Below, piece after piece: positions 23,090-43,564 of a stretch of 64,000 nucleotides of DNA (position 1 is its first letter; the number at the start of each line of letters is the position of its first letter). The notes under the pieces are model-generated. The model was not told the DNA's origin. It saw only the letters and a program-made list of their open reading frames with translations, and did not search any database. The translations under genes were made by a program, and so were the position numbers. The stretch is from Desulfobacterales bacterium (GTDB lineage Bacteria > Desulfobacterota > Desulfobacteria > Desulfobacterales > JAUYIZ01), in assembly GCA_030688615.1 (NCBI GenBank), contig JAUYIZ010000358.1, forward strand, positions 1,006 to 65,005. The letters run 5' to 3'.

Positions 23090-24499
23090 TTAAGATATCC
23101 GGCTGAAATCTATCGCTTTAAATTTAAGGACAACCACGTAGATAATCAGCAGTTCTATCAATAATGCGGCCGGTTTGATAAATATATTGAAATAATGGAA
23201 CAGCACAAAAAGTATGACGTAGACGATAATCAGGTGCAGCAGAATCGGTTCGATGCCTTTGCGCACTTCTGAAAATAAGAGAAAGAATATTTTAATGCCG
23301 TACGTTTTTTTTCTTAAATCATCAAAGCCTTGATGCACGCGCCGGACCGCGGGAGTCTTGATCAGAATGCGGCTGAATTTTTCCACCAGCGCGACACTTG
23401 AAATGTAACCCATCAATTTTTTTATGGTGGACAACTCCCGGCGGCCGTAAAAAAGGAACGCGTAAAAAAGTGAAGCGCACAGGATGAGAAAATAATACGC
23501 CACCCCGGCCACCTCGGTAATCAGGTTGTCTTGAAGCATGTTCAGCAGGAGGTTGGCATGGATCTTTACTCCGGGAATATAGCCGTAAAAAGGCACCAGC
23601 TTCATGTCGCCGAGCCCGGTTGCGACGGCTGCGATAAACACGATTTTATCTTTGAAAAACCGCCCGGGAATCCTGCCGGACCATATGTCATAAAAGGATA
23701 TTTCTCTGATTTTATTTTTTGAGTCGATATTGATGTGCGCCCGGGAAAGGGCGTCCACCGGTATTTTGAACCTGCCGGCCCGGATCACACCTTTCTGGAT
23801 GGCAACCTTTTCCAGCGGAATGTCATTGATCCGGCGCAGGACCTCAAATGCAAGGGTTGGATAAAGCCGGTCTTTCACTTTTAGGACAATGGGGATCTTT
23901 CTCAACAATCCGTCATTATCCGGGTAGGCATTGGCCAGGCCGAAGCCCTGGAGCGCCTGAAAAATAGCAGGAGAAATGGATTCAAAGCCCTTCTCGTTGA
24001 TAAACCCTTTGGGCAAGCCGGCCGGGGCCTTTTGCGAAAAGGGCTCAAACATACCCTTGGACCGGTCATTTTCAGATGCAAAAATAACGGAAAACACCGG
24101 TCCGGTTGCCATGGTTTGCGCCAGGCGGGAATCCACCTCGGGGTCGTCATGGGGATCGGCAAACAGAATATCGTAAACCACGGCTTTGGGGCGGCCCGCC
24201 AGAATATTTTTCAGCAGGCCGATGTGATAGGCTCTGTATTTTAAGGGGTTGTAGGCGCCAAGTTTGTTCAGGGTTCTATCGTCGATGCCCACCAGGACGA
24301 CATTGCTGTAGTTTTGGGAGGCAACATCCCTAAAACGCTCACGGGTCGCCAGAAACTGGGTATAAAACGCATCATCAACCTGCACCAGGATGTTGGCCAC
24401 CAGCCCTTTGAGCGTGATGCTGATGAAAAGCAGGGAAAAACTTGCCAGGGCCAGTGAAATCACGGCGATATATTTATTTTTTTCCTGAAATGTTTTCAC
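23090..24499 (-). CDS. CHASE2 sensor-domain membrane protein with no recognisable output domain
   Basis: N-terminal TM segment, then VVLVGIDDRTLNKLGAYNPLKYRAYHIGLLKNILAGRPKAVVYDILFADP. C-terminal hydrophobic segments follow, but no cyclase, kinase or GGDEF motifs. Confidence 0.6.
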   Translation of the reverse strand: MKTFQEKNKYIAVISLALASFSLLFISITLKGLVANILVQVDDAFYTQFLATRERFRDVASQNYSNVVLVGIDDRTLNKLGAYNPLKYRAYHIGLLKNILAGRPKAVVYDILFADPHDDPEVDSRLAQTMATGPVFSVIFASENDRSKGMFEPFSQKAPAGLPKGFINEKGFESISPAIFQALQGFGLANAYPDNDGLLRKIPIVLKVKDRLYPTLAFEVLRRINDIPLEKVAIQKGVIRAGRFKIPVDALSRAHINIDSKNKIREISFYDIWSGRIPGRFFKDKIVFIAAVATGLGDMKLVPFYGYIPGVKIHANLLLNMLQDNLITEVAGVAYYFLILCASLFYAFLFYGRRELSTIKKLMGYISSVALVEKFSRILIKTPAVRRVHQGFDDLRKKTYGIKIFFLLFSEVRKGIEPILLHLIIVYVILFVLFHYFNIFIKPAALLIELLIIYVVVLKFKAIDFSRIS

Positions 24500-25235
24500 G
24501 ATCGCGCAACAACTTTTCCCGCCTCAGATTCCACAGCACCCAGGGATCTTTTGAAAAGCCTTGGACATCCAGATCTTTCTTCTCATATCCGCCCCGGGAA
24601 TCAATGGTGATCTGTTGCAATTCGTTAATAATTTCCACCCATTTTTCCATGCTGACCGAGTGGGGGCCGGTAACCGGGCGAGGTTTTGATATTGACGGCT
24701 GTTTGCCCGGCGCTGCTTCCGGCTGCCCGGGCCGGCTGCTCCAGGCGGCCACCTGGCCCTCATGAACGCTGACCCGGGTTCGATCACTGGTCTCATCAAC
24801 CCTGAAGGTCGTCCCCCGTATGGCGCATACGGCTTTGTCCGTGTGGACCTGAAAGGTTTTATTTTTCGAGACGATTTTCCGCGCGTTGACCCAGACTTTT
24901 CCAGCTGCCAGAAATATGGAAAACTTTTGCAGCGCTTTGGCTTTCTTTTCCTTTTCAAGTTCAAGTTTCTGGATGGAATTTTCATCCATCCGCAGAACGG
25001 AACCGTCGTTGAGGGTGATTTCACAGCGGGATTCAGGCCCGGTCCGGATCCGGCCGCCCGGAAAAACCTTGTCGTCCAGATGAAGCGGCTCCCATTTTTT
25101 TCCGTCAAAAGAGACCGAGGCCTCCCCCAGGATAAACGACATCGTGCCGATGGCCTCCGGCTGCATATCCGCATATGAGGGAACGCAGAAAAAACCAACC
25201 CCTAAAGACAGACCGATCATGAAAAACTTTTTCAT
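24474..25235 (-). CDS. Secreted FecR-domain protein
   Basis: Start at MKKFFMIGLSL (25235) is preceded by GAGGA; the ORF is open to 25265. FecR-like core: FPGGRIRTGPESRCEITLNDGSVLRMDENS ... AVCAIRGTTFRV. Confidence 0.65.
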   Translation of the reverse strand: MKKFFMIGLSLGVGFFCVPSYADMQPEAIGTMSFILGEASVSFDGKKWEPLHLDDKVFPGGRIRTGPESRCEITLNDGSVLRMDENSIQKLELEKEKKAKALQKFSIFLAAGKVWVNARKIVSKNKTFQVHTDKAVCAIRGTTFRVDETSDRTRVSVHEGQVAAWSSRPGQPEAAPGKQPSISKPRPVTGPHSVSMEKWVEIINELQQITIDSRGGYEKKDLDVQGFSKDPWVLWNLRREKLLRDRENISGKK

Positions 25236-25268
25236 AGCGTGTTTCCTCGACTCCGGCGTGTTCAAACA

Positions 25269-25315: not shown

Positions 25316-27571
25316 CTATTTGGTTTTCATGGTGTAGGCCCCGTCCCAGTCCTTGCCCGGCGGATCCGATTTGAACTCATTACATCGGCTTATGAAGGTT
25401 TTGCTGGGGCCGTCGTCGGGAGACGCCGCCAGGGCGGCATTAAAATAATTGATGGCCTCGTCCCACTGCCGTTCCCGGTATGCATAACGTCCTTTGGCAT
25501 ATTGATCCACGGTTTCCCGGGTCCGGGCATCGACCTCGTTGATATAGCCCATGATCTCATAAATATTCACCGCTTCTTTTTTCCCCACCACATTGATCGA
25601 ATCAATCTGCCGGGTCATGATTCGATCTCCGCATGCTTTGTATGTTGTTTCACTGATCAGGGTGTAAATTCCATACACTTTGTTTACGCCTTCCAGTCGG
25701 GCCGCGGTATTGACGGTATCGCCCATCATCGTGTAATCCATGCGGTTTTTGGATCCCATGTTGCCCACCACGGCACTGCCAGTGCAAAGACCAATCCGCA
25801 TCTTCAGCTCCGGTTTCCCGGCCGCTTTCAGCTCGACCCGCCGCCGGGCTAATATATTCTGCATTTCAACGCAGGCGATACAGGCTCTTTCCGCATGATT
25901 TTCAAGGTCGTTGGGCGCACCGAATAGCGCGATGATGGCGTCCCCTTCAAACTTATCCACGGTTCCTTCAAGATCCAGGATGATTTCGGTCATTTCCGTC
26001 AGGTATTCATTGAGCAATTCAACCAGCGCAGGGGCGGTCAGCTTTTCAGAAATGCTCGTAAACCCCTCCAAATCCGAAAAAAATGCCGTGATTTCACGGT
26101 TTTCCCCGCCTAAAACCAGTTTCTCGGGCGATTCGATCAGCTGTTTCACCACCGATGGAGCAAGGTACGTGGAAAAAGCGCTGCGGATAAACGCTTTCTG
26201 TCTGGATTCGGAAAAGTATCGATACGCCGTGATGCCGGTATAGGCCATCAGGATGACGATCAGTGGATACACAAGGTTTAAAATCCATCCATAGGAGGAA
26301 AAAAGATACTGGCAGAGAACGATATAAAGCACAAAAGCCGTAAACCCTGTTCCGGTGCCGAGGATGACGCCGCCTCTGGGAAGTAAAAACCCGAGTAAAA
26401 GACCGCACAGAACGATTGCCATCATGTCGAAAAGGGCCACCCAGCCGGGTTTCTGCAAAAAATCTTTCGAAAAAATGCTGTCCACGATATTGGCATGAAT
26501 TTCCAGCCCCGGATAAACACTCTCAAAGGGCGTGTTGCGCAAATCATAAATGCCGGTGGCCGTGGCCCCCACAAATACGATTTTATTCTTCAGGATCTCG
26601 TCTGAAACTTTGCCCTGCAGAATATCGGTGATGGAAATATGGGGGAAAATTTTCTGCTTACCCCGGTAATTGATCATGATCCTTCCAATTTCATCGGTCG
26701 GGATCTGCACCCTTCCGATGCGGACCTTTTCAACGCCGTAATCGGCGATTTTTACCGAAAGGGGCTGGTTCCAAAAAGCGCTCATAACCTTAAGGGATAG
26801 CGGGGCGTAAAGGTTGTCCCTGAACTTGAGCACCGCCGGAAGCCATCGAACCACACCGTCCGTTTCGGTGAACATATTAAAAAAACCGGCGTCGCCGGCA
26901 GCGGTTGCGATTTCCCTGATGTTGGACTGGGGCACTTTCCCCGCTAAAAAGGGCAGATTCCGGGCGCCTTCGGAAGCATACTGTACAAATGCATATTTTG
27001 CCCCTTGCACATTCTCCGCATGCGTCTGGATGTCTTTTTCGGTAATATGTTCGATCTCCCTGTCGTCCATTTGAAAAAAATACCCGAGGACCACTTTGGC
27101 CTTGGATTTTTTGATGGCTTCGGCCAGCAGTCGATCATTGTCGGACTCCAGCGTTATCTTTTCCAGGTAGTTCTGAAATTCACTGTTTTGGATCTTAAAA
27201 TCGGCAAGGCTTGTTTTAATTTGGTCCAGGGCGTGGATCAGTCGTTTATTGTCCGGTTCGAGAAATCCCACATCGAACCCGATGACCTTGGCGCCGGCGT
27301 CTGAAAGCCTGTTGATCAGATGGGCGAATTTTTTCCTCGGCCAGACCCAATTTCCCTCCACGGCAATGCTCTTTTCATCCACCACCGCCAGCACCACCTC
27401 CGGTCCCGGTGGTATTTCCCCCCGGGATTGAAATCGCAGATCGATGGTCCTCAATTCCATTAATTCGAGGAAGGGCACTTTCACGGTATAGGCGGCCAGA
27501 CCCAGGATAATGGTGAGGGCGGCAATGGTAAGGGGGCTTAATTTAACATATTTTTTAATGAAGGCGGCCAT
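25316..27571 (-). CDS. Class III adenylate/guanylate cyclase with an N-terminal CHASE2 sensor and a C-terminal TPR-like tail
   Basis: CHASE2 motif: VLAVVDEKSIAVEGNWVWPRKKFAHLINRLSDAGAKVIGFDVGF. Cyclase motifs: ITAFFSDLEGFTSISE, VDKFEGDAIIALFGAP, RIGLCTGSAVVGNMGS, DYTMMGDTVNTAARLEG. Start taken at MAAFIKKY (27571). Confidence 0.8.
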   Translation of the reverse strand: MAAFIKKYVKLSPLTIAALTIILGLAAYTVKVPFLELMELRTIDLRFQSRGEIPPGPEVVLAVVDEKSIAVEGNWVWPRKKFAHLINRLSDAGAKVIGFDVGFLEPDNKRLIHALDQIKTSLADFKIQNSEFQNYLEKITLESDNDRLLAEAIKKSKAKVVLGYFFQMDDREIEHITEKDIQTHAENVQGAKYAFVQYASEGARNLPFLAGKVPQSNIREIATAAGDAGFFNMFTETDGVVRWLPAVLKFRDNLYAPLSLKVMSAFWNQPLSVKIADYGVEKVRIGRVQIPTDEIGRIMINYRGKQKIFPHISITDILQGKVSDEILKNKIVFVGATATGIYDLRNTPFESVYPGLEIHANIVDSIFSKDFLQKPGWVALFDMMAIVLCGLLLGFLLPRGGVILGTGTGFTAFVLYIVLCQYLFSSYGWILNLVYPLIVILMAYTGITAYRYFSESRQKAFIRSAFSTYLAPSVVKQLIESPEKLVLGGENREITAFFSDLEGFTSISEKLTAPALVELLNEYLTEMTEIILDLEGTVDKFEGDAIIALFGAPNDLENHAERACIACVEMQNILARRRVELKAAGKPELKMRIGLCTGSAVVGNMGSKNRMDYTMMGDTVNTAARLEGVNKVYGIYTLISETTYKACGDRIMTRQIDSINVVGKKEAVNIYEIMGYINEVDARTRETVDQYAKGRYAYRERQWDEAINYFNAALAASPDDGPSKTFISRCNEFKSDPPGKDWDGAYTMKTK

Positions 27572-27705
27572 ACCGGATTTCCTTGAGAGCTCTTTTCTAA
27601 AACGGAAGCTAACGGATAGTTGTCTAAATTTGTTGACCTTTTTGTTTTTTATAGTGTAATAATCAAGGATAGTCAATAAAAGTCTGTTCGTTATATTCAT
27701 TTTTA

Positions 27706-28503
27706 ATGAGGTTTTTGCGCCGGATGGTTCACATTACAGGTTACGCCGGAAGGCATACCATCAGGTATGTCAACCACATTTTGGACCTTTTCGCCCTGAA
27801 TTTCAGAATATGCCGTCTGCTTTTTATCCGGCAGAGATACGGGCGGACGCTGGTACGCAGGGTCGCCCTGGAACAGGTCTATTTTACCTGCGTTCAGGCC
27901 CTGCCCATAATCATCCCCATCGCCCTGATTATCGGCAGCATGATGCTCATACAGTTCTCAAAAGTATCCGGGCAATACGATCTTGGCAAGACCACGGTTC
28001 TGCTGATTGTGCGGGAACTGGGCCCGGTGGTCACCGCGCTGCTGGTCATTTTAAGGTCTGCCACCGCCGTGACCATAGAAATCAGCTACATGAATGTGCT
28101 CAACGAAGTCGACGCGCTGGAGATGGCGGGGATGGATCCGCTGCGTATCATCGGCCTGCCAAGAATGATCGGCATTGTTTCCGCCCTGCTCTGTCTTTTT
28201 GTTATTTTTGATCTCATTGCAATTATCGGCGGGTATGCCGTTGCCTGGATGATTACTTACATATCCATGGGCGATTTTCTGGCACAAATCGCCAAAGCCA
28301 TCACCTTGACCGATATTACGGTGGGCATCGTAAAAGCATTATTTTTCGGCATCACCATCACGGTAACCTGCATTTATCACGGACTGTCCATACCCCAAAA
28401 CATGATGACACGCATTCCCATGAAGACTTCCAGGGCCGCGGTGGATTGCTTTTTTTATTGTTTATTGATAAATGTCGCCATATCTGTTGCTTTTTACATT
28501 TAG
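27706..28503 (+). CDS. mlaE: MlaE-family ABC transporter permease
   Basis: 265-aa polytopic protein. RELGPVVTALLVILRSATAVTIEISYMNVLNEVDALEMAGMDP is typical of MlaE/Ttg2B. Confidence 0.75.
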   Translation: MRFLRRMVHITGYAGRHTIRYVNHILDLFALNFRICRLLFIRQRYGRTLVRRVALEQVYFTCVQALPIIIPIALIIGSMMLIQFSKVSGQYDLGKTTVLLIVRELGPVVTALLVILRSATAVTIEISYMNVLNEVDALEMAGMDPLRIIGLPRMIGIVSALLCLFVIFDLIAIIGGYAVAWMITYISMGDFLAQIAKAITLTDITVGIVKALFFGITITVTCIYHGLSIPQNMMTRIPMKTSRAAVDCFFYCLLINVAISVAFYI

Positions 28504-28511
28504 GATCCATA

Positions 28512-29192
28512 ATGCCTCTTGTTGAGCTTTCAAACTATACCCTTGAAGCCCCCGGGGCCGGAAACGGTCTTAAAAACTGCAACTTCACCGTTTCGGAGGA
28601 TGAGATTTACGCGGTTCATTCCGACAACCCCGAGGATGCGCATCTTTTTCTGAAAGCCCTTGCGACCCTTGAACGCCCGAAACACGGCACGTATCGGTTT
28701 AACGGCCAAGCCCTCGATTTCACGGATTACAGAAAACTATTGCCCTTTAAATACAAGATCGGTTACGTGGCCTGGGACGCCTCGCTGATCGGCAACCGGA
28801 CCGTCAGGGAGAATCTGCTGTTCAGCAGATATTATTTTGAAAATTCGCTTTCATTGACGCTGGATGAAAAATCCGGCAGGCTCTGCAATCTTTTAAAAAT
28901 TGAAACCTCGCTGGAGAAACGGCCTTCAGAGCTTAATCAGTCCGAGCGGAAAATCGCGATTACCATCCGGGAGCTGATGAAGGCCCCGGACCTGCTGCTG
29001 ATCGAATTTCCTGAGGATTTGGTGAAAGGACAGACCGTTGATTTCATTTTCGAAACCTTAACGGGCATTTTCGGTTCAGCCCATGCAGTGGTTTTATACT
29101 CCTATGACGAGGAAGTCACGGCACGTTTTTCCAATAAGAGCGTGTCCATTCTTAACGGGATCGTAACGGTGCAGGACGTAATGCGGGAATAA
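28512..29192 (+). CDS. MlaF-like ABC ATPase homolog with degenerate nucleotide-binding motifs (probable pseudo-ATPase)
   Basis: ABC-fold spacing is retained but the motifs are lost: Walker A is HSDNPEDAH, the Q-loop region is VAWDASL, the signature is LNQSE, Walker B is LLLIEFPED and the H-loop is YSYD. It sits between the mlaE and mlaD homologs. Confidence 0.6.
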   Translation: MPLVELSNYTLEAPGAGNGLKNCNFTVSEDEIYAVHSDNPEDAHLFLKALATLERPKHGTYRFNGQALDFTDYRKLLPFKYKIGYVAWDASLIGNRTVRENLLFSRYYFENSLSLTLDEKSGRLCNLLKIETSLEKRPSELNQSERKIAITIRELMKAPDLLLIEFPEDLVKGQTVDFIFETLTGIFGSAHAVVLYSYDEEVTARFSNKSVSILNGIVTVQDVMRE

Positions 29193-29197
29193 TACCC

Positions 29198-30238
29198 ATG
29201 GATTTGAATTTCAGCAGACAAGAAAAAATCGTCGGGACGTTTTTAGTCACTGTGGTCCTCATCCTGCTTGCTGTAGTGATCGTCATCGGCCGCGGCAAAG
29301 ACTGGTATAAAACCTATGCCACCTATTATGCGACATTTAACCAAAGTTATGATCTGCAGGAAAATGCCGCCGTTAAACTTTTTAAGGCCAACATTGGAAA
29401 AGTCAGGCGGATTACGCTGGTGGAAAACAAAGTGAAGGTGGAGCTGGGCATCCTGGAAGAATATGCGAACCACATCCGATCCGATTCCGTGGCCACCGTG
29501 GAGAGCCCCACATTCATCGGCTCGGAGTATGTCTCCATCATCCCCGGAAACGCCGCGTCGGCCCGGATTCCCGATAACGGAGAAATTCCTTCCAAGGAAA
29601 AAAAATCAATCAGCGACCTGCTGGCCGAATTTCAGGTTGAAAAAACAGCCAAGATGCTCATTAAAGCGGTCCAGGATCTATCCGATGCCATGCTGACGCT
29701 GCGGGACCCGGCCGGGCCGCTCTTTTCCGCCCTGGGACACCTGGACCGGACCACGGAAAATATCGAAAAGATCACCGCGGATATCCAGGCCGGCAAAGGA
29801 ACCCTGGGGGAACTCTTTAAATCCCGCTCGCTGATCGAAGCGCTCCATAAGAACATGGACAGCGTCAGAGAAATCCTGCAGCATATCGCCAGGGCATCTG
29901 CAAAAACCCCGAAAGCGATGGATCAGGTCCAGGACAACCTGTCCGTCATCAAACAGGTGGGAACCCATCTTTCAGAAAGCGTTCTGCAGATTCAACGCAT
30001 TTTAAAAGAAGTTGAAAAGGACATGCAGGCCGTCGAAAGGATTCTTGCCAATATCGAAAATGGAAGCCTCACGGTGCCTGAAATTATGCAGTCAACCAAA
30101 TTCAGCATTCAAGAAATCCGGGAAGGCGTTGAAAATGCGGATAAAATCTTTAAATCCCTCCAGAAAAATTTTTTGATCCGCCCCAACATCCCGCCGGAAC
30201 CGGTGGGCAAAAACATCGATGCGGGATTACGGAAATGA
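29198..30238 (+). CDS. mlaD: MlaD/MCE-domain protein with a long C-terminal helical extension
   Basis: N-terminal TM segment. MCE core: VKLFKANIGKVRRITLVENKVKVELGILEEYANHIRSDSVATVESPTFIGSEYVSIIPG. About 200 aa of helical, coiled-coil-like tail follow. Confidence 0.7.
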   Translation: MDLNFSRQEKIVGTFLVTVVLILLAVVIVIGRGKDWYKTYATYYATFNQSYDLQENAAVKLFKANIGKVRRITLVENKVKVELGILEEYANHIRSDSVATVESPTFIGSEYVSIIPGNAASARIPDNGEIPSKEKKSISDLLAEFQVEKTAKMLIKAVQDLSDAMLTLRDPAGPLFSALGHLDRTTENIEKITADIQAGKGTLGELFKSRSLIEALHKNMDSVREILQHIARASAKTPKAMDQVQDNLSVIKQVGTHLSESVLQIQRILKEVEKDMQAVERILANIENGSLTVPEIMQSTKFSIQEIREGVENADKIFKSLQKNFLIRPNIPPEPVGKNIDAGLRK

Positions 30239-30278: not shown

Positions 30279-30725
30279 TTACGTGCGCGCCTTCAATTGA
30301 GTTGCCACGGCTTGATTCAGCAATTTTTGCGCTTGGATGAGTTTTTTATACTTTGATTCTATATTCTCCATATTTCGGGACAGAACAGCTTTCAATAAAT
30401 CTCCCTCCATTTCAGCAACATCGATTCTTTCATAATAGTCCATCGTCTCTTTGAGATGTGCGATGACGATCTTGCCTGTTAAAATGGGGTGGTTGTTCGT
30501 GACATTTGCATCCTCAAATCTGGTTCCATGTTCCAGCTCGACCTCTAAACCTTTTCGGAACGCCTCCAGGGGAATGTTCATCCCCTGGGTATTCACAATA
30601 TTGAGAATCGTGGCGGCTTCTTCAGCTGAGACAGCTGGATCCGCAATTTCGGACCAGTCACGCAAACCCGTTTCGTGGCAGACTCTTTTTACCTCTTCGG
30701 CAGTGATATACTCCGGCAGCTTCAC
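30279..30725 (-). CDS. Hypothetical cytoplasmic protein (148 aa)
   Basis: Clean ORF in an AT-richer stretch, containing GLEVELEHGT. I cannot assign a family with confidence. Confidence 0.45.
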   Translation of the reverse strand: MKLPEYITAEEVKRVCHETGLRDWSEIADPAVSAEEAATILNIVNTQGMNIPLEAFRKGLEVELEHGTRFEDANVTNNHPILTGKIVIAHLKETMDYYERIDVAEMEGDLLKAVLSRNMENIESKYKKLIQAQKLLNQAVATQLKART

Positions 30726-31183: not shown

Positions 31184-32164
31184 TCATTTACTTCGTCCGT
31201 CCACCGCGGACACCCATTTATTTCCTATTTTGTGCAAATCCACATGGTGCATGCCGGCTGCATTCCATCCGATGGCCGTCTTGGTTACGATGGGTTTTGT
31301 CGAGGCCAATTTTTCCGCATATGATGTTTCAGACAGCTCACTTATTTCAAAGGCAAAAACCTGGATGCCATAACTGGGATCATCATCTTGTGCCAACCGG
31401 AACAGTTTGCCATCATAAACGATAACCCGGCCGGCCGGCCTTGAAAAATGCTTATTTCGCTTTACGATCGGGTTCTTTGGATGAGGCTTCCACCCTGATA
31501 ATAAGTTATCCGAAAAATAAAGGTTCAGGGTTTCATGGTTCCCGGCAGCGACAAACATCCACCATTTATCTTCATGACGAAATATGGAAGGATCCAAATA
31601 TTGATATCCGGACAACAGATTCCCGGCATACTCCCATTTTTCAGGAAACTGCGTAGCCTTATATAACCTCACCGAAAAATCTTCATTACTCTCCGGAATT
31701 AAGTAGTAGCTATTGTCCCACTCGAAAACATATGGATACGACAAATGAAATTTTTCATTAATAACAACTTTTCGGTAATGCCACTCTCTGCCGTCCGCAC
31801 TGTCTGCATAGGCAATAACACCCTGGTCGCTTTTCCGGTCGAGCACTTCAAAAAACATGAAATATTTTCCATTCTTAACCACCATGAATGGATCTGCGAT
31901 GAAGGCTGCGTCTCTGTCGGCAACATCTTTTCCGGTTAGAACCGGATTGGAAACATCTTCCGGGGCAGCCAGATCGAATGGCGTGGAACCTTCATAAATC
32001 CCAATGGACCAGGGGCCGTAAGGACCCTCCTGCTCCGGATTGTTGAATGCTGTTTTAAGGACTCTGTCAGGAAATATCTCATATTTTTGGATGACCATTC
32101 CAGAAATTACACCCGCTGTAAATGTCATGATCAACAGGGCGGAAATGGTCAGATATCTCTTCAT
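31184..32164 (-). CDS. Membrane-anchored beta-propeller protein (GH43/GH32-superfamily-like)
   Basis: N-terminal TM anchor. FIADPFMVVKNGKYFMFFEVL, YPYVFEWDNSYYLIPES, DPSIFRHEDKWWMF and RPAGRVIVYDGKLFRLAQD resemble blades of a five-bladed propeller. The family assignment is tentative. Confidence 0.45.
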   Translation of the reverse strand: MKRYLTISALLIMTFTAGVISGMVIQKYEIFPDRVLKTAFNNPEQEGPYGPWSIGIYEGSTPFDLAAPEDVSNPVLTGKDVADRDAAFIADPFMVVKNGKYFMFFEVLDRKSDQGVIAYADSADGREWHYRKVVINEKFHLSYPYVFEWDNSYYLIPESNEDFSVRLYKATQFPEKWEYAGNLLSGYQYLDPSIFRHEDKWWMFVAAGNHETLNLYFSDNLLSGWKPHPKNPIVKRNKHFSRPAGRVIVYDGKLFRLAQDDDPSYGIQVFAFEISELSETSYAEKLASTKPIVTKTAIGWNAAGMHHVDLHKIGNKWVSAVDGRSK

Positions 32165-32571: not shown

Positions 32572-34206
32572 ATGTCTTATTACCGAGATCTGCGGGAGTA
32601 CCTGTCCGCGCTTGATCAAAAAGGCAAGCTAAGGACCATCGCTGCTGAAATCAACACGGAGACCCAACTTCATCCGCTGGTCAGATGGCAGTTCAGGGGC
32701 CTTGATGAAGCCGACCGCACCGGTTTTTTATTTGAAAACCTCATTGACGGCCGGGGCAAAAAATACAATTGCCGGGTGGCCACGTCGGTCACAGGCGCCT
32801 CCAAGGAGGTTTATGCCATCGGACTTAAAACCGGGGTCGGCGAAATACATGCGGCCTGGACAAAGGCCCTCAACGCGCCGATCCCGCCGAAAATCGTGCG
32901 CAACGGGCCGGTAAAGGAAGAAATTCACAAGGGCGCCGATCTCTGCGTCCACGGCGGCACGGGCGAGTTCGCCATTCCCATCTCCACCAACGGGTGGGAG
33001 AGCCTGCCCAGGCTGACGGCGATTTCCTGGCACACCAAAGACCCCGATACCGGCGTGATCAACGTGGGCACCTACAACGGCACCGTACTGGGGCCGACCC
33101 GCACCAGCTGCCGTTCGCCGCGCACGGATCTGCGTATTCACTGGGATAAACACCGCGCCAAGGGAGAGCCTCTGCCCGCAGCCATCGTTATCGGAGCCGT
33201 GCCGGCCGTCACCATGGTCAGTGTTTCAAAAATTCCCTACGGTTTGAGTGAACTGGATGTGGCCGGAGCTCTGGCGGGTGAACCCATAGAGGTCATCCCC
33301 TGTGAAACGATTGACCTTCTGGTGCCGGCAACCGCCGAGGTTGTCATGGAAGGGTATATATCCACCGAATTTACAGAACCGGATGCCGCCAGCGGTGAAC
33401 ACACCGGATATATGATCGTCGAACACGAGGTCTTTGCTTTTGAAGTCAAATGTATCACCCACAGAAAAAACCCCATCTGGCATGATTTTATCAGTCAGAT
33501 GCCTCCCTCCGAATCGAGCGTCATCCGGGGGATCGCCACGGAGGGCCGGATGCTGAGCTTTCTGGTCAACAGCTGCGGTATTCCGCAGGTAAAGGAAGTT
33601 GCTTTTCACCACTGCGCGGGGGGGTGGCGGATGTGCGTGATCAAGCTGCAGGACATATCGGGCAAGAGAACCCATAACAGCATCGTCTGGCAGGCCCTTC
33701 TGGCTTCTCTGGCAGTCACCACCGATTTCCCCAAGATGGTCATTGCCGTTGACGACGACATCGACACCTGGGATCTTGAGTCGGTGTTCTGGGCGGTCAC
33801 TTTTCGCTATCAGCCCCACCGGGACACCAAAATCATCCAGGGCAGGGCGGCCGGCCTGGACCAGTCCGCCGGTCCCTATACCGTCGAAAAGGAAGAACGC
33901 ATCTACCCGACTTCCAGGTCCGCGCCCCAGGGCGGTTCGGCGATTCTCATGGACGCAACCCGCAAGTGGGCTTACACGCCCATCGCTTTGCCCAAGCGCG
34001 AATACATGGAAGATGCGAAAAAACTCTGGGAAAGCCTGGGCCTGCCGAAACTGTCGCCGAAGAAGCCATGGTATGGCGTATCCCTGGGGATGTGGCCTGA
34101 AGAGCATGAACGCCAGGCCGGGTTGGCCGCCCGGGGAGATTTCAAGGCCGTGGCCGAAGAGCTGATGGCGGGCCGCATCGTACCGCCCTTCAGTTCTACG
34201 AAATAG
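32572..34206 (+). CDS. UbiD-family (de)carboxylase, divergent paralog 1 (544 aa)
   Basis: Overall UbiD layout: KLRTI..EINTETQLHP, NVGTYN, IVIGAVPAV, GEHTGYM, QMPPSESSVIRG. The conserved NxGxYR arginine is Asn here (codon 169, nt 33076-33078). Confidence 0.8.
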   Translation: MSYYRDLREYLSALDQKGKLRTIAAEINTETQLHPLVRWQFRGLDEADRTGFLFENLIDGRGKKYNCRVATSVTGASKEVYAIGLKTGVGEIHAAWTKALNAPIPPKIVRNGPVKEEIHKGADLCVHGGTGEFAIPISTNGWESLPRLTAISWHTKDPDTGVINVGTYNGTVLGPTRTSCRSPRTDLRIHWDKHRAKGEPLPAAIVIGAVPAVTMVSVSKIPYGLSELDVAGALAGEPIEVIPCETIDLLVPATAEVVMEGYISTEFTEPDAASGEHTGYMIVEHEVFAFEVKCITHRKNPIWHDFISQMPPSESSVIRGIATEGRMLSFLVNSCGIPQVKEVAFHHCAGGWRMCVIKLQDISGKRTHNSIVWQALLASLAVTTDFPKMVIAVDDDIDTWDLESVFWAVTFRYQPHRDTKIIQGRAAGLDQSAGPYTVEKEERIYPTSRSAPQGGSAILMDATRKWAYTPIALPKREYMEDAKKLWESLGLPKLSPKKPWYGVSLGMWPEEHERQAGLAARGDFKAVAEELMAGRIVPPFSSTK

Positions 34207-42463: not shown

Positions 42464-43564
42464 ATGTTCAAGGCAACCAATCTACATAAGAGCTACTTTG
42501 TTGACGGCAATCCTGTGCGTGCGCTGCGGGGCGTTAGTTTTACGATTAACAAGGGAGATGTATACACCCTGCTGGGCCCCAGCGGATGCGGCAAAACCAC
42601 CATGCTGCGTTGTATTGCCGGGCTTGAAACACCCGACCAGGGAGAAATCACGCTGCAGGACAAGGTGCTGTTCTCAAGCCGCACCGGAGAATCTGAAGCC
42701 ACCTACCGGCGCAATCTCGGCATGGTGTTTCAATCTTATGCCATATGGCCCCACATGAACGTTTTTGACAATGTTGCCTTTCCCCTTTATTACGGGGGCC
42801 GAAAGCATTCCAAGCAGGAAATAAAGGATTTTGTGAAAAAGGCCCTGCAATCCGTCGAGCTGGAGGGCTTCGAGTCCCGTTCGGCCACCCTGTTGAGCGG
42901 CGGGCAGCAGCAGCGGGTTGCCCTGGCGCGCGCGCTGGTTTATCAGCCCAGTATTTTCCTGCTGGACGAACCCCTGAGCAACCTGGATGCCCGGCTGCGG
43001 GACGAGGTCCGCCAGGAACTCAAGGAACTGGTCAAGCGGCTCAACCTTACCGTCCTGTACGTTACCCACGACCAGGTTGAGGCCCTTTCCCTGTCCGACC
43101 GCATTGCCGTGATGCGCGACGGTCTAATCGTTCAGGAGGGAACCCCTTCCGAGATATACTTAACCCCGCAGGAAACGTTTGTGGGCACCTTCGTGGGCAA
43201 AGCCAACCTGATCCAGGGGGTTTTGGTTGAAAAAGACGGGGCCATGTGCCGGGTGAAAACGGATCTGGGACTGCTTCAGGGGGCGACATCGGGCGTGCCG
43301 GTTCAGAAAGGGGATTCGGTCGTGGTCCTGATCCGGCCCAATATCATCACCGCCGTGACCCAGAAACCCGCGGCCGAGACCAATGTTCTGGAAGCCGAAT
43401 TAGTGGATTCGACTTTTACCGGGGCCCTTACGGAGTGTCAAACCATGTGCGGCAATGTCGCCATAGAAGCCCAGATAGCCGGCTTGATCCAATTCAAGGT
43501 CAAGGAAAAGATATACCTGCAGTTTCCCCCGGAACTTTGCCGCATTCTGCCGGCAAAAGCGTAA
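42464..43564 (+). CDS. ABC transporter ATP-binding protein (PotA/FbpC-like, with a C-terminal TOBE-like domain)
   Basis: All catalytic motifs are intact: GPSGCGKTT, LSGGQQQRVALARAL, FLLDEPLSNLD, VTHDQ. Confidence 0.85.
   Translation: MFKATNLHKSYFVDGNPVRALRGVSFTINKGDVYTLLGPSGCGKTTMLRCIAGLETPDQGEITLQDKVLFSSRTGESEATYRRNLGMVFQSYAIWPHMNVFDNVAFPLYYGGRKHSKQEIKDFVKKALQSVELEGFESRSATLLSGGQQQRVALARALVYQPSIFLLDEPLSNLDARLRDEVRQELKELVKRLNLTVLYVTHDQVEALSLSDRIAVMRDGLIVQEGTPSEIYLTPQETFVGTFVGKANLIQGVLVEKDGAMCRVKTDLGLLQGATSGVPVQKGDSVVVLIRPNIITAVTQKPAAETNVLEAELVDSTFTGALTECQTMCGNVAIEAQIAGLIQFKVKEKIYLQFPPELCRILPAKA

Follow-up and report, generated by a model that had tools for sequence, protein, structure and literature searches.

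The stretch of DNA analyzed here, referred to as the window, comprises 64,000 nucleotides of contig JAUYIZ010000358.1 from a Desulfobacterales bacterium (assembly GCA_030688615.1) and carries a three-gene operon in which a protein with the build of an ATP-binding cassette (ABC) nucleotide-binding domain (NBD), but with none of its nucleotide-binding motifs, is encoded between an MlaE-type permease and a long MlaD/MCE protein. All three genes lie on the + strand. The pseudo-NBD, designated F' below, is encoded at 28512-29192 by an intact open reading frame (ORF) that runs from ATG 28512 to TAA 29190-29192 and specifies 226 aa. A longer ORF starting at TTG 28446 was rejected, since every homolog begins at the position of M1 in the sequence MPLVEL. 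The gene starts 8 nt past the mlaE stop codon and ends 5 nt ahead of mlaD. The permease gene occupies 27706-28503 (Pfam PF02405, E = 8e-47); 27706 is the ORF-based start, and ATG 27724 is favored by the orthologs and by the called gene (259 aa). The MlaD/MCE protein of 346 aa, encoded at 29198-30238, matches PF02470 with E = 8.7e-14 and the TIGR00996 Mce family with E = 7e-22 over residues 13-285. The Pfam and NCBIfam matches of the two neighbors agree with the original prediction, which had been made from the sequence of the window and had placed the gene between MlaE and MlaD homologs.

The motif columns of F' were located in HMMER alignments to the solved NBDs of MacB, PsdA, and LolD and in MAFFT alignments with Escherichia coli MlaF and LptB, and the two kinds of alignment place the motifs column for column alike. 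The former Walker A motif or P-loop (28617-28643, +) reads HSDNPEDAH where E. coli MlaF has GPSGIGKTT, and the lysine is replaced by Ala43. In the Q-loop region (28764-28784, +; YVAWDAS) the glutamine position is occupied by Trp88, encoded by the codon at 28773-28775. The former ABC signature (28932-28946, +) is LNQSE, compared with LSGGM or LSGGE in canonical NBDs (LSGGM in E. coli MlaF), and the former Walker B motif (28992-29009, +) is LLLIEF, compared with the hhhhDE pattern, so that Asp-Glu has become Glu165-Phe166. The H-loop region (29097-29108, +) reads YSYD, with Tyr198 at the histidine position (codon 29103-29105). The D-loop is likewise gone, its SALD sequence being replaced by P-E-D-[FY]-x-G, and the A-loop aromatic position, as aligned to MlaF and MacB, holds a non-aromatic residue in F' and in >90% of its homologs. 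That all catalytic motifs are replaced, as had been proposed, is confirmed by several independent alignments and by translation of the coordinates, which reproduces precisely the motif strings listed at that time. The alignment with MlaF leaves the motif assignment unshifted, and no alignment restores the canonical residues. The profile scores are low throughout: F' matches Pfam ABC_tran (PF00005) with only 31.4 bits against a cut-off of 25, and dozens of NCBIfam ATPase models with 25-54 bits against cut-offs of 200-700 bits.

Despite this loss of chemistry, the fold itself is kept. An AlphaFold2 model of F', computed with 61 homologs, has a mean predicted local distance difference test score (pLDDT) of 89.4 and a predicted template modeling score (pTM) of 0.87. 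When the model was compared with known structures by Foldseek, ABC NBDs filled the top of the list with TM scores of 0.7-0.83 and E values down to 2.7e-16, the matches including MacB, FtsE, MetN, LolD, YbbA, E. coli MlaF (6xgz), and mycobacterial MceG (8fed). Model and structural matches thus agree with the earlier view that F' retains the length and motif spacing of an ABC ATPase, indicating that the RecA-like and helical subdomains of the NBD fold have been preserved whereas the catalytic chemistry has not. By sequence, the nearest canonical NBDs are of the LolD, FtsE, MacB, and MetN type, and the best NCBIfam and PDB matches are to FtsE, LolD, MacB, MetN, and bacteriocin-exporter NBDs. A phmmer search with E. 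coli MlaF misses F' at E < 1e-3, and no MlaF chain is found among the best 60 of 70 PDB profile matches. F' also terminates approximately 40 residues short of the C-terminus of E. coli MlaF and lacks the C-terminal extension with which that protein wraps around the partner MlaF and MlaB, and there is no STAS/MlaB gene in the operon. Judged by its sequence, F' is not specifically MlaF-like, which corrects the original prediction on this point. The triad is a Mla/MCE-type system of the long-MlaD MlaEFD architecture.

F' belongs to a sizable family that shares these losses. A homology search with F' returned 97 proteins of 217-244 aa with 36-53% identity. In an exhaustive profile search of 1.84 billion representative sequences, clustered at 50% identity, approximately 80 clusters were retrieved at E <= 1e-30; farther down, from about E = 1e-26 on, ordinary ABC ATPases gradually take over. 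Every full-length protein that was examined above this family boundary is degenerate; an intact Walker A motif occurs only below it, first near E = 1e-26. When the members from all sources were pooled, the family comprised at least 213 non-identical proteins, with lengths clustering at 218-250 aa. They are named in the sources either as hypothetical proteins or by assorted unrelated transporter and ABC names, and no NCBIfam model captures the family. The pattern GxxxxGK[ST] is present in 0/213 members, and the Walker A lysine position is an alanine in 84% of them. The Q-loop glutamine survives in 29% of the family and the H-loop histidine in 11%, while xSGGx is kept in two of the 213 members, the signature consensus having become L-R-P-V-D. 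At the Walker B aspartate position glutamate is found in 62% and aspartate in 30%, and the catalytic glutamate is replaced by arginine in 72% of the family (by phenylalanine in the window protein). The former P-loop now has the consensus D-S-x-D-D-A-H (D38, 76%; D42, 68%; A43, 84%) and a mean net charge of -2.06, compared with +1 in MlaF, the charge being negative in about 91% of members. The region of Walker B and the D-loop has the consensus L-L-L-[ED]-R-P-E-D-[FY], with P167 conserved in 98% and E168 in 90%. The old motifs have been exchanged for new conserved ones, an acidic D-S-x-D-D-A-H loop and an [ED]-R-P-E-D-[FY] motif.

The ratio of nonsynonymous to synonymous substitution rates (dN/dS) was estimated by the Nei-Gojobori method for 75 ortholog pairs with 0.05 < dS < 1.5, pairs that are phylogenetically non-independent but give a uniform signal. 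The median dN/dS was 0.20 for F', compared with 0.16 for MlaE and 0.20 for MlaD from the same genomes, indicating that the orthologs are under purifying selection. The median pairwise identity was 61% for MlaE, 51% for MlaD, and 44% for F'. In ABC transporters the NBD is as a rule better conserved than the other subunits, whereas here it ranks last, and the low identity of F' fits a protein in which catalytic constraint has been lost and structural constraint retained. The low Pfam score of 31 bits could also be taken to mean that F' is a decaying pseudogene, or that the motif loss is an artifact of alignment, and one locus from a metagenome-assembled genome (MAG; L063:9244-11808) has all three triad genes split into several ORFs. 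Because all three genes are hit, the splits in this locus are more likely to be assembly frameshifts than signs of pseudogenization. The family-wide motif loss, the intact and constant lengths of 213 homologs, and a dN/dS of 0.20 argue that F' is not decaying, and the orthologs show neither the frameshifts nor the relaxed selection expected of a gene in decay; the independent alignments and the confident fold model agree on the motif positions. Decay or artifact is refuted by this evidence, and we assign it almost no probability. The finding is solid at the level of sequence and evolution: the comparisons show F' to be a conserved, selectively maintained pseudo-ATPase with an ABC NBD fold, in which canonical ATP binding and hydrolysis should be impossible. 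A separate group of short NBDs (P0202, P0205, P0209, P0223, P0227, and P0235) ranks just below the F' family in the profile search and is partly degenerate. In these P0202-type proteins Walker A is intact (GKSGSGKST), the signature is altered to LS-[LIM]-GE-[QK]-K, and the H-loop histidine is replaced by asparagine in most members.

A scan of one genome per GTDB species yielded 59 loci, of which 58 were usable; the remaining locus (L065), from an archaeon, was excluded from the family as it holds canonical NBDs. The 58 loci carry the labels Desulfobacterales, Desulfobacteraceae, Desulfosarcina, Desulfococcus, Desulfosudaceae, or Candidatus Desulfatibia, or the broader labels Thermodesulfobacteriota, Deltaproteobacteria, and Proteobacteria, and the F' family was found only in Desulfobacterales-type genomes and metagenomes. 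Among the carriers are the cultured Desulfosarcina widdelii PP31 (L051) and a MAG with a closed chromosome (L009), and the window sequence itself is present in three DNA metagenome runs, two from groundwater and one from sediment. The order E-F'-D was found in all 58 usable loci, with median gaps of 15 and 28 nt. One MAG, JBNLFN01 (C1.bin.41), contains two different E-F'-D triads (L023 and L045), whose upstream elements are of different lineage types; they may be paralogous systems in one genome or the product of a mixed bin.

The conserved linkage bears on whether the system might still be driven by ATP. A canonical MlaF-type NBD encoded elsewhere could bind MlaE, either as a heterodimer with F' or by exchange with it, leaving F' as a regulatory or spare subunit. 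There is a precedent for such an arrangement in mycobacteria, where several mce operons are served by MceG, which is encoded at a separate site (PMC9947336). A comparable situation may exist in Desulfococcus oleovorans Hxd3, for which two MlaE proteins (ABW65843 and ABW66827), three MlaD proteins (ABW65841, ABW66825, and ABW67397), and one clustered MlaF (ABW66826) are listed (PMC10665443, Supplementary Data 1), that is, a canonical MlaEFD set and, in addition, an MlaE/MlaD pair flanking a gene that the MlaF profile of the survey passed over. This gene, between ABW65841 and ABW65843, is a candidate pseudo-NBD only; a search with the Desulfosudaceae homolog retrieved no Hxd3 protein.

Several observations weigh against recruitment of a canonical NBD. 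The close linkage of F' with E and D holds in all 58 loci, and a canonical NBD is adjacent to the triad in 0/58. Within the window and 10 kb on either side of the 58 loci there is no MlaF-like gene adjacent to a triad. Most of the NBD matches within 10 kb of the loci score better to LptB than to MlaF, the exceptions being two weak MlaF-like matches at the edges of loci L047 and L051. The only nearby NBD with annotated neighbors, in L003, is part of a Liv-type importer, and the sole other NBD in the window (42464-43564) is part of a BPD_transp_1 importer. There is one MlaE gene per operon, which makes both docking sites equivalent. Moreover, NBD dimers are assembled head-to-tail, so a heterodimer of a canonical NBD with F', which is devoid of Walker A and the signature, would have no complete composite ATP site. 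The known degenerate-site ABC heterodimers, in contrast, keep Walker A and still bind ATP. F' resembles PatAB, TM287/288, and CFTR in that catalytic or signature residues depart from the consensus and a non-hydrolytic site has been retained by evolution, but in those proteins one composite site is degenerate, Walker A is kept, and ATP is bound, whereas in F' all motifs are lost. Because of this complete loss, both ATP sites would be gone in what should be an F' homodimer. Taken together, we regard an ATP-driven system with a borrowed NBD as unlikely, though worth keeping in mind.

The best-conserved stretch of F' comprises residues 83-103, which run from the Q-loop into the first helix of the helical subdomain and have the consensus I-G-Y-I-..-A-.-I-.-N-.-T-.-R-E-N-.-L. 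Conservation peaks at residues 91-103, and N101 and L103 are invariant. In ABC NBDs, the Q-loop/helical-subdomain region lines the groove that takes the coupling helix of the permease. MlaE, in turn, represents a divergent subfamily, because its score of 122 bits against TIGR00056 falls below the cut-off of 212; its best 120 matches are all orthologs, 59-70% identical. The coupling-helix motif of the window protein is N-E-V-D-A-L-E-M-A-G-M-D-P, and the 120 orthologs share the consensus h-E-x-D-A-i-E-M-a-G-x-D-P, with some columns conserved to >=90%. This motif corresponds to the 'EExDA' loop that has been proposed as the MceG-binding site of the mycobacterial YrbE permeases (PMC9947336). Since both the groove region of F' and the coupling helix of MlaE are conserved, we infer that F' is still docked on MlaE, probably as a stoichiometric subunit of an MlaE2-F'2-MlaD6 complex.

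The MlaD protein consists of an N-terminal membrane anchor, a single MCE domain (residues ~41-117), and a helical tail of ~190 residues (~135-325). The tail of the window protein gives coiled-coil-type profile matches only, and the orthologs show faint matches to Pfam Helical_needle in this region. The original prediction had drawn attention to a tail of about 200 aa; the tail is real but not unusual, since long MlaD proteins are common outside the Proteobacteria, where they have been proposed to form a trans-envelope bridge in minimal MlaEFD operons (Grasekamp et al., PMC10665443). It resembles the needles of Mce1, TGD2, and Brucella MpcD (PMC12436622).

When the triad is compared with E. coli MlaFEDB, the two systems share an MlaE with a coupling helix, an MCE protein anchored in the inner membrane, and a co-operonic subunit of NBD fold, with an expected stoichiometry of 2:2:6. 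They differ in gene order (E-F'-D here, F-E-D in E. coli), in the absence of MlaB, MlaC, and MlaA from the operon, and in the size of MlaD, which has 346 aa with a helical tail here compared with 183 aa in E. coli. A similar arrangement is that of the long-MlaD system of Veillonella parvula, a minimal and tight E-F-D operon whose long MlaD has an α-helical extension proposed to bridge the envelope; the V. parvula protein, however, ends in a β-barrel, which is not detected in MlaD here (PMC10665443). Mycobacterial Mce1 and Mce4 (PMC9947336) and Brucella Mpc (PMC12436622) are also built from MCE domains and a helical needle on an MlaE-type permease, in keeping with the TIGR00996 match of MlaD, and in these complexes the NBD is required for stability (PMC9947336, PMC12436622). 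Their NBDs, MceG and MpcF, differ from F' in being canonical ATPases whose catalytic residues are required; in addition, the Mce proteins form heterohexamers, and Mpc contains a PqiC-like lipoprotein and a STAS domain. PqiAB(C) and LetAB form MCE trans-envelope tunnels without an ATPase subunit and offer a functional analogy for an ATP-independent conduit, although PqiA and LetA are unrelated to MlaE, no subunit of NBD fold is present, and each MCE protein has several MCE domains. In the literature searched, no pseudo-MlaF and no fully degenerate homodimeric NBD in an MCE system was found, which is not proof of novelty.

Upstream of the triad, on the - strand, the window encodes a CHASE2 sensor/class III nucleotidyl cyclase with a C-terminal TPR region (25316-27571; Pfam CHASE2, E = 1.4e-59; Guanylate_cyc, E = 6.1e-21), a FecR-domain protein (24474-25265, -; Pfam FecR, E = 4.4e-21), and a CHASE2-only protein with no output domain (23090-24499, -; Pfam CHASE2, E = 2.7e-42), whose gene overlaps that of the FecR protein by 26 nt. 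The cyclase ORF could reach 27700, yet it would then cover the promoter element described below; its start is likely to be Met44, at 27571. Of the fetched loci, 45 reach at least 3 kb upstream; a divergent CHASE2 cyclase lies beside mlaE in 10 of these, in addition to the window, and in one further lineage a cyclase paralog is found on the same strand. The cyclase-linked loci fall into two deeply separated clades of the E+F'+D tree, which suggests that the adjacency is old and has been lost repeatedly. FecR homologs recur in several of these loci. The commonest divergent neighbor of mlaE (20 loci) is a secreted protein of ~290 aa with no Pfam match, at a median distance of 143 nt; it occupies the place of the cyclase, often after metK and ahcY (for example L003:8106-8984, -). 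No partner gene is kept in all loci. On the other side of the window triad, a DUF5661 protein (30279-30725, -) is encoded convergently to mlaD, followed by a protein of 326 aa with a GINT1_N domain (glucosamine inositolphosphorylceramide transferase 1 N-terminal domain; 31184-32164, -; Pfam E = 8e-60), which also gives weak GH32/GH43 matches, and, farther downstream, a UbiD-family decarboxylase (32572-34206, +). In other loci, none of these genes accompanies the triad.

A non-coding element of ~70 nt with the features of a promoter or operator lies upstream of mlaE at 27614-27684 (no strand assigned), where it was delimited with an nhmmer profile and by alignment. The element is present in 44 of 57 eligible loci, whatever the neighbor (for example L002:9023-9091, L003:9059-9135, and L051:9101-9174), as a single copy per locus, and a profile built from 43 copies finds none elsewhere in ~965 kb. 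It consists of TTGACC, 11 variable nt, TATATTGTAAGA, ~9 variable nt, and AAGTCAAC; the blocks are almost invariant despite saturated dS between the genomes, whereas the spacers are variable, and the outer arms TTGAC and GTCAA are inverted. From its sequence, the element can be read as two overlapping, face-to-face sigma-70-like promoters, or as an operator. The putative promoter on the plus strand, directed toward mlaE, would be TTGACC-18-TAAGAT (TAATAA in the window), and that on the minus strand, directed toward the divergent neighbor (the cyclase in the window), would be TTGACT-17/18-TATAAA, with a spacing of 17 in the window. If this is correct, mlaE-F'-D and the divergent neighbor would be transcribed from mutually overlapping promoters. 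A role of the element as RNA was rejected in favor of one at the level of DNA, as RNAalifold gave -0.17 kcal/mol with zero compensatory pairs or covariation and there was no Rfam match. Copies of the 11-mer core on the minus strand ~1.5 kb downstream were likewise rejected, being the reverse complement of the coding sequence for the MlaD N-terminus; other scattered matches to the core are near the estimated chance number. Nothing consistent with the CRP-type palindrome TGTGA-N6-TCACA was found in the cyclase-linked intergenic regions.

The earlier proposal that the triad is tied to the CHASE2 cyclase in a common envelope program is therefore upheld in part, by the 10 of 45 loci and by the shared, conserved promoter region, but the link is not universal. 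Where the neighbor is a cyclase, the overlapping promoters would give the idea some substance, if not proof. An extension of the idea would make the triad a trans-envelope sensor, in which the state of the envelope or of its lipids is sensed by the MCE needle and relayed via MlaE to F' and on to a cytoplasmic partner, possibly with a link to the CHASE2 cyclase. The new conserved surface motifs of F' in place of the nucleotide site, the occurrence of the divergent cyclase in two deep clades, and the strongly conserved promoter region that it shares with the triad are consistent with such a role. However, the cyclase is absent from about three quarters of the loci, no other partner accompanies the triad throughout, and Pfam and NCBIfam profile scans recognize no cyclic nucleotide (cNMP)-binding or signaling domain in F'. 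The MCE/MlaE/needle architecture is otherwise of the lipid-transporter type (PMC10665443, PMC12436622), and we consider a sensor decidedly improbable.

In our preferred interpretation, which we hold to be probable by a modest degree, F' is a non-catalytic subunit docked on MlaE, and the triad is an MCE conduit that operates without ATP hydrolysis at its own NBD. On the cytoplasmic side, F' would be a stoichiometric component of MlaE2-F'2-MlaD6, seated on the MlaE coupling helices, with its nucleotide site exchanged for the conserved acidic and Arg-Pro-Glu motifs. A hydrophobic substrate would cross the periplasm inside a conduit formed by the helical tail of the hexameric MlaD. The part left to F' would be that of a structural clamp, keeping the MlaE dimer in a conformation that is either fixed or controlled by a ligand or partner, and movement through the MCE tunnel would then be equilibrative or have another driving force. 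Such a conduit would have parallels in PqiAB and LetAB, MCE systems with an inner-membrane partner that lacks an ATPase (PMC12436622), and a structural role would recall MceG, without which Mce1 and Mce4 are not stable (PMC9947336).

A number of points weigh against this interpretation. Walker B mutants of Mycobacterium tuberculosis MceG fail to stabilize Mce1 and Mce4 (PMC9947336), indicating that in a canonical system the presence of the NBD alone is insufficient, which counts against a purely passive scaffold. A single-sequence AlphaFold2 model of MlaD places helices at 147-324 with low confidence (pLDDT 44), giving only a hint of the helical tail. To our knowledge, there is no precedent for ATP-independent function of an MlaE-type permease. 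Finally, two possible remnants of the nucleotide site persist in the F' family, an acidic residue at the Walker B aspartate position in 92% of members and a tyrosine (Y9, 85%) two residues ahead of the A-loop position. Together with the strong conservation of the remodeled pocket, these residues would also be compatible with a non-canonical pocket in which F' binds some nucleotide or other small ligand, thereby gating or powering MlaE. A P-loop without glycines and lysine and with its negative mean charge should, however, repel phosphates, and the signature, Q-loop, and H-loop have either been lost or vary among members, making such binding highly doubtful.

A more specific form of the non-catalytic interpretation assigns a function to the new motifs. 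The acidic pseudo-P-loop and the arginine in the place of the catalytic glutamate may fill the former ATP site and so hold the F' dimer, and MlaE with it, at one stage of the ABC cycle, producing a trans-envelope lipid channel that is constitutively open or signal-gated, with gating possibly tied to the CHASE2 cyclase module, with which the operon would share a bidirectional promoter. We consider this nucleotide-free mimic rather unlikely; if true, it would represent an ABC transporter scaffold that evolution has turned into an ATP-independent conduit.

Lipid traffic across the envelope of double-membraned bacteria depends centrally on Mla and MCE systems, and there is still debate over its direction and energetics (PMC10665443, PMC12436622). 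The F' family is a natural comparison in this respect, as it retains the full build of MlaE, NBD fold, and MCE needle with an ATP site that would have been abolished long ago, under purifying selection on all three genes. As F' scores barely above or below the generic ABC thresholds, surveys of Mla systems based on hidden Markov models (HMMs) may log such operons as MlaDE without MlaF. The occurrence of the triad in the cultured D. widdelii PP31 makes experiments possible, and the family can reveal which roles an NBD may have apart from hydrolysis, in assembly, stabilization, or conformational locking, and whether an MCE tunnel on an MlaE base works without ATP.

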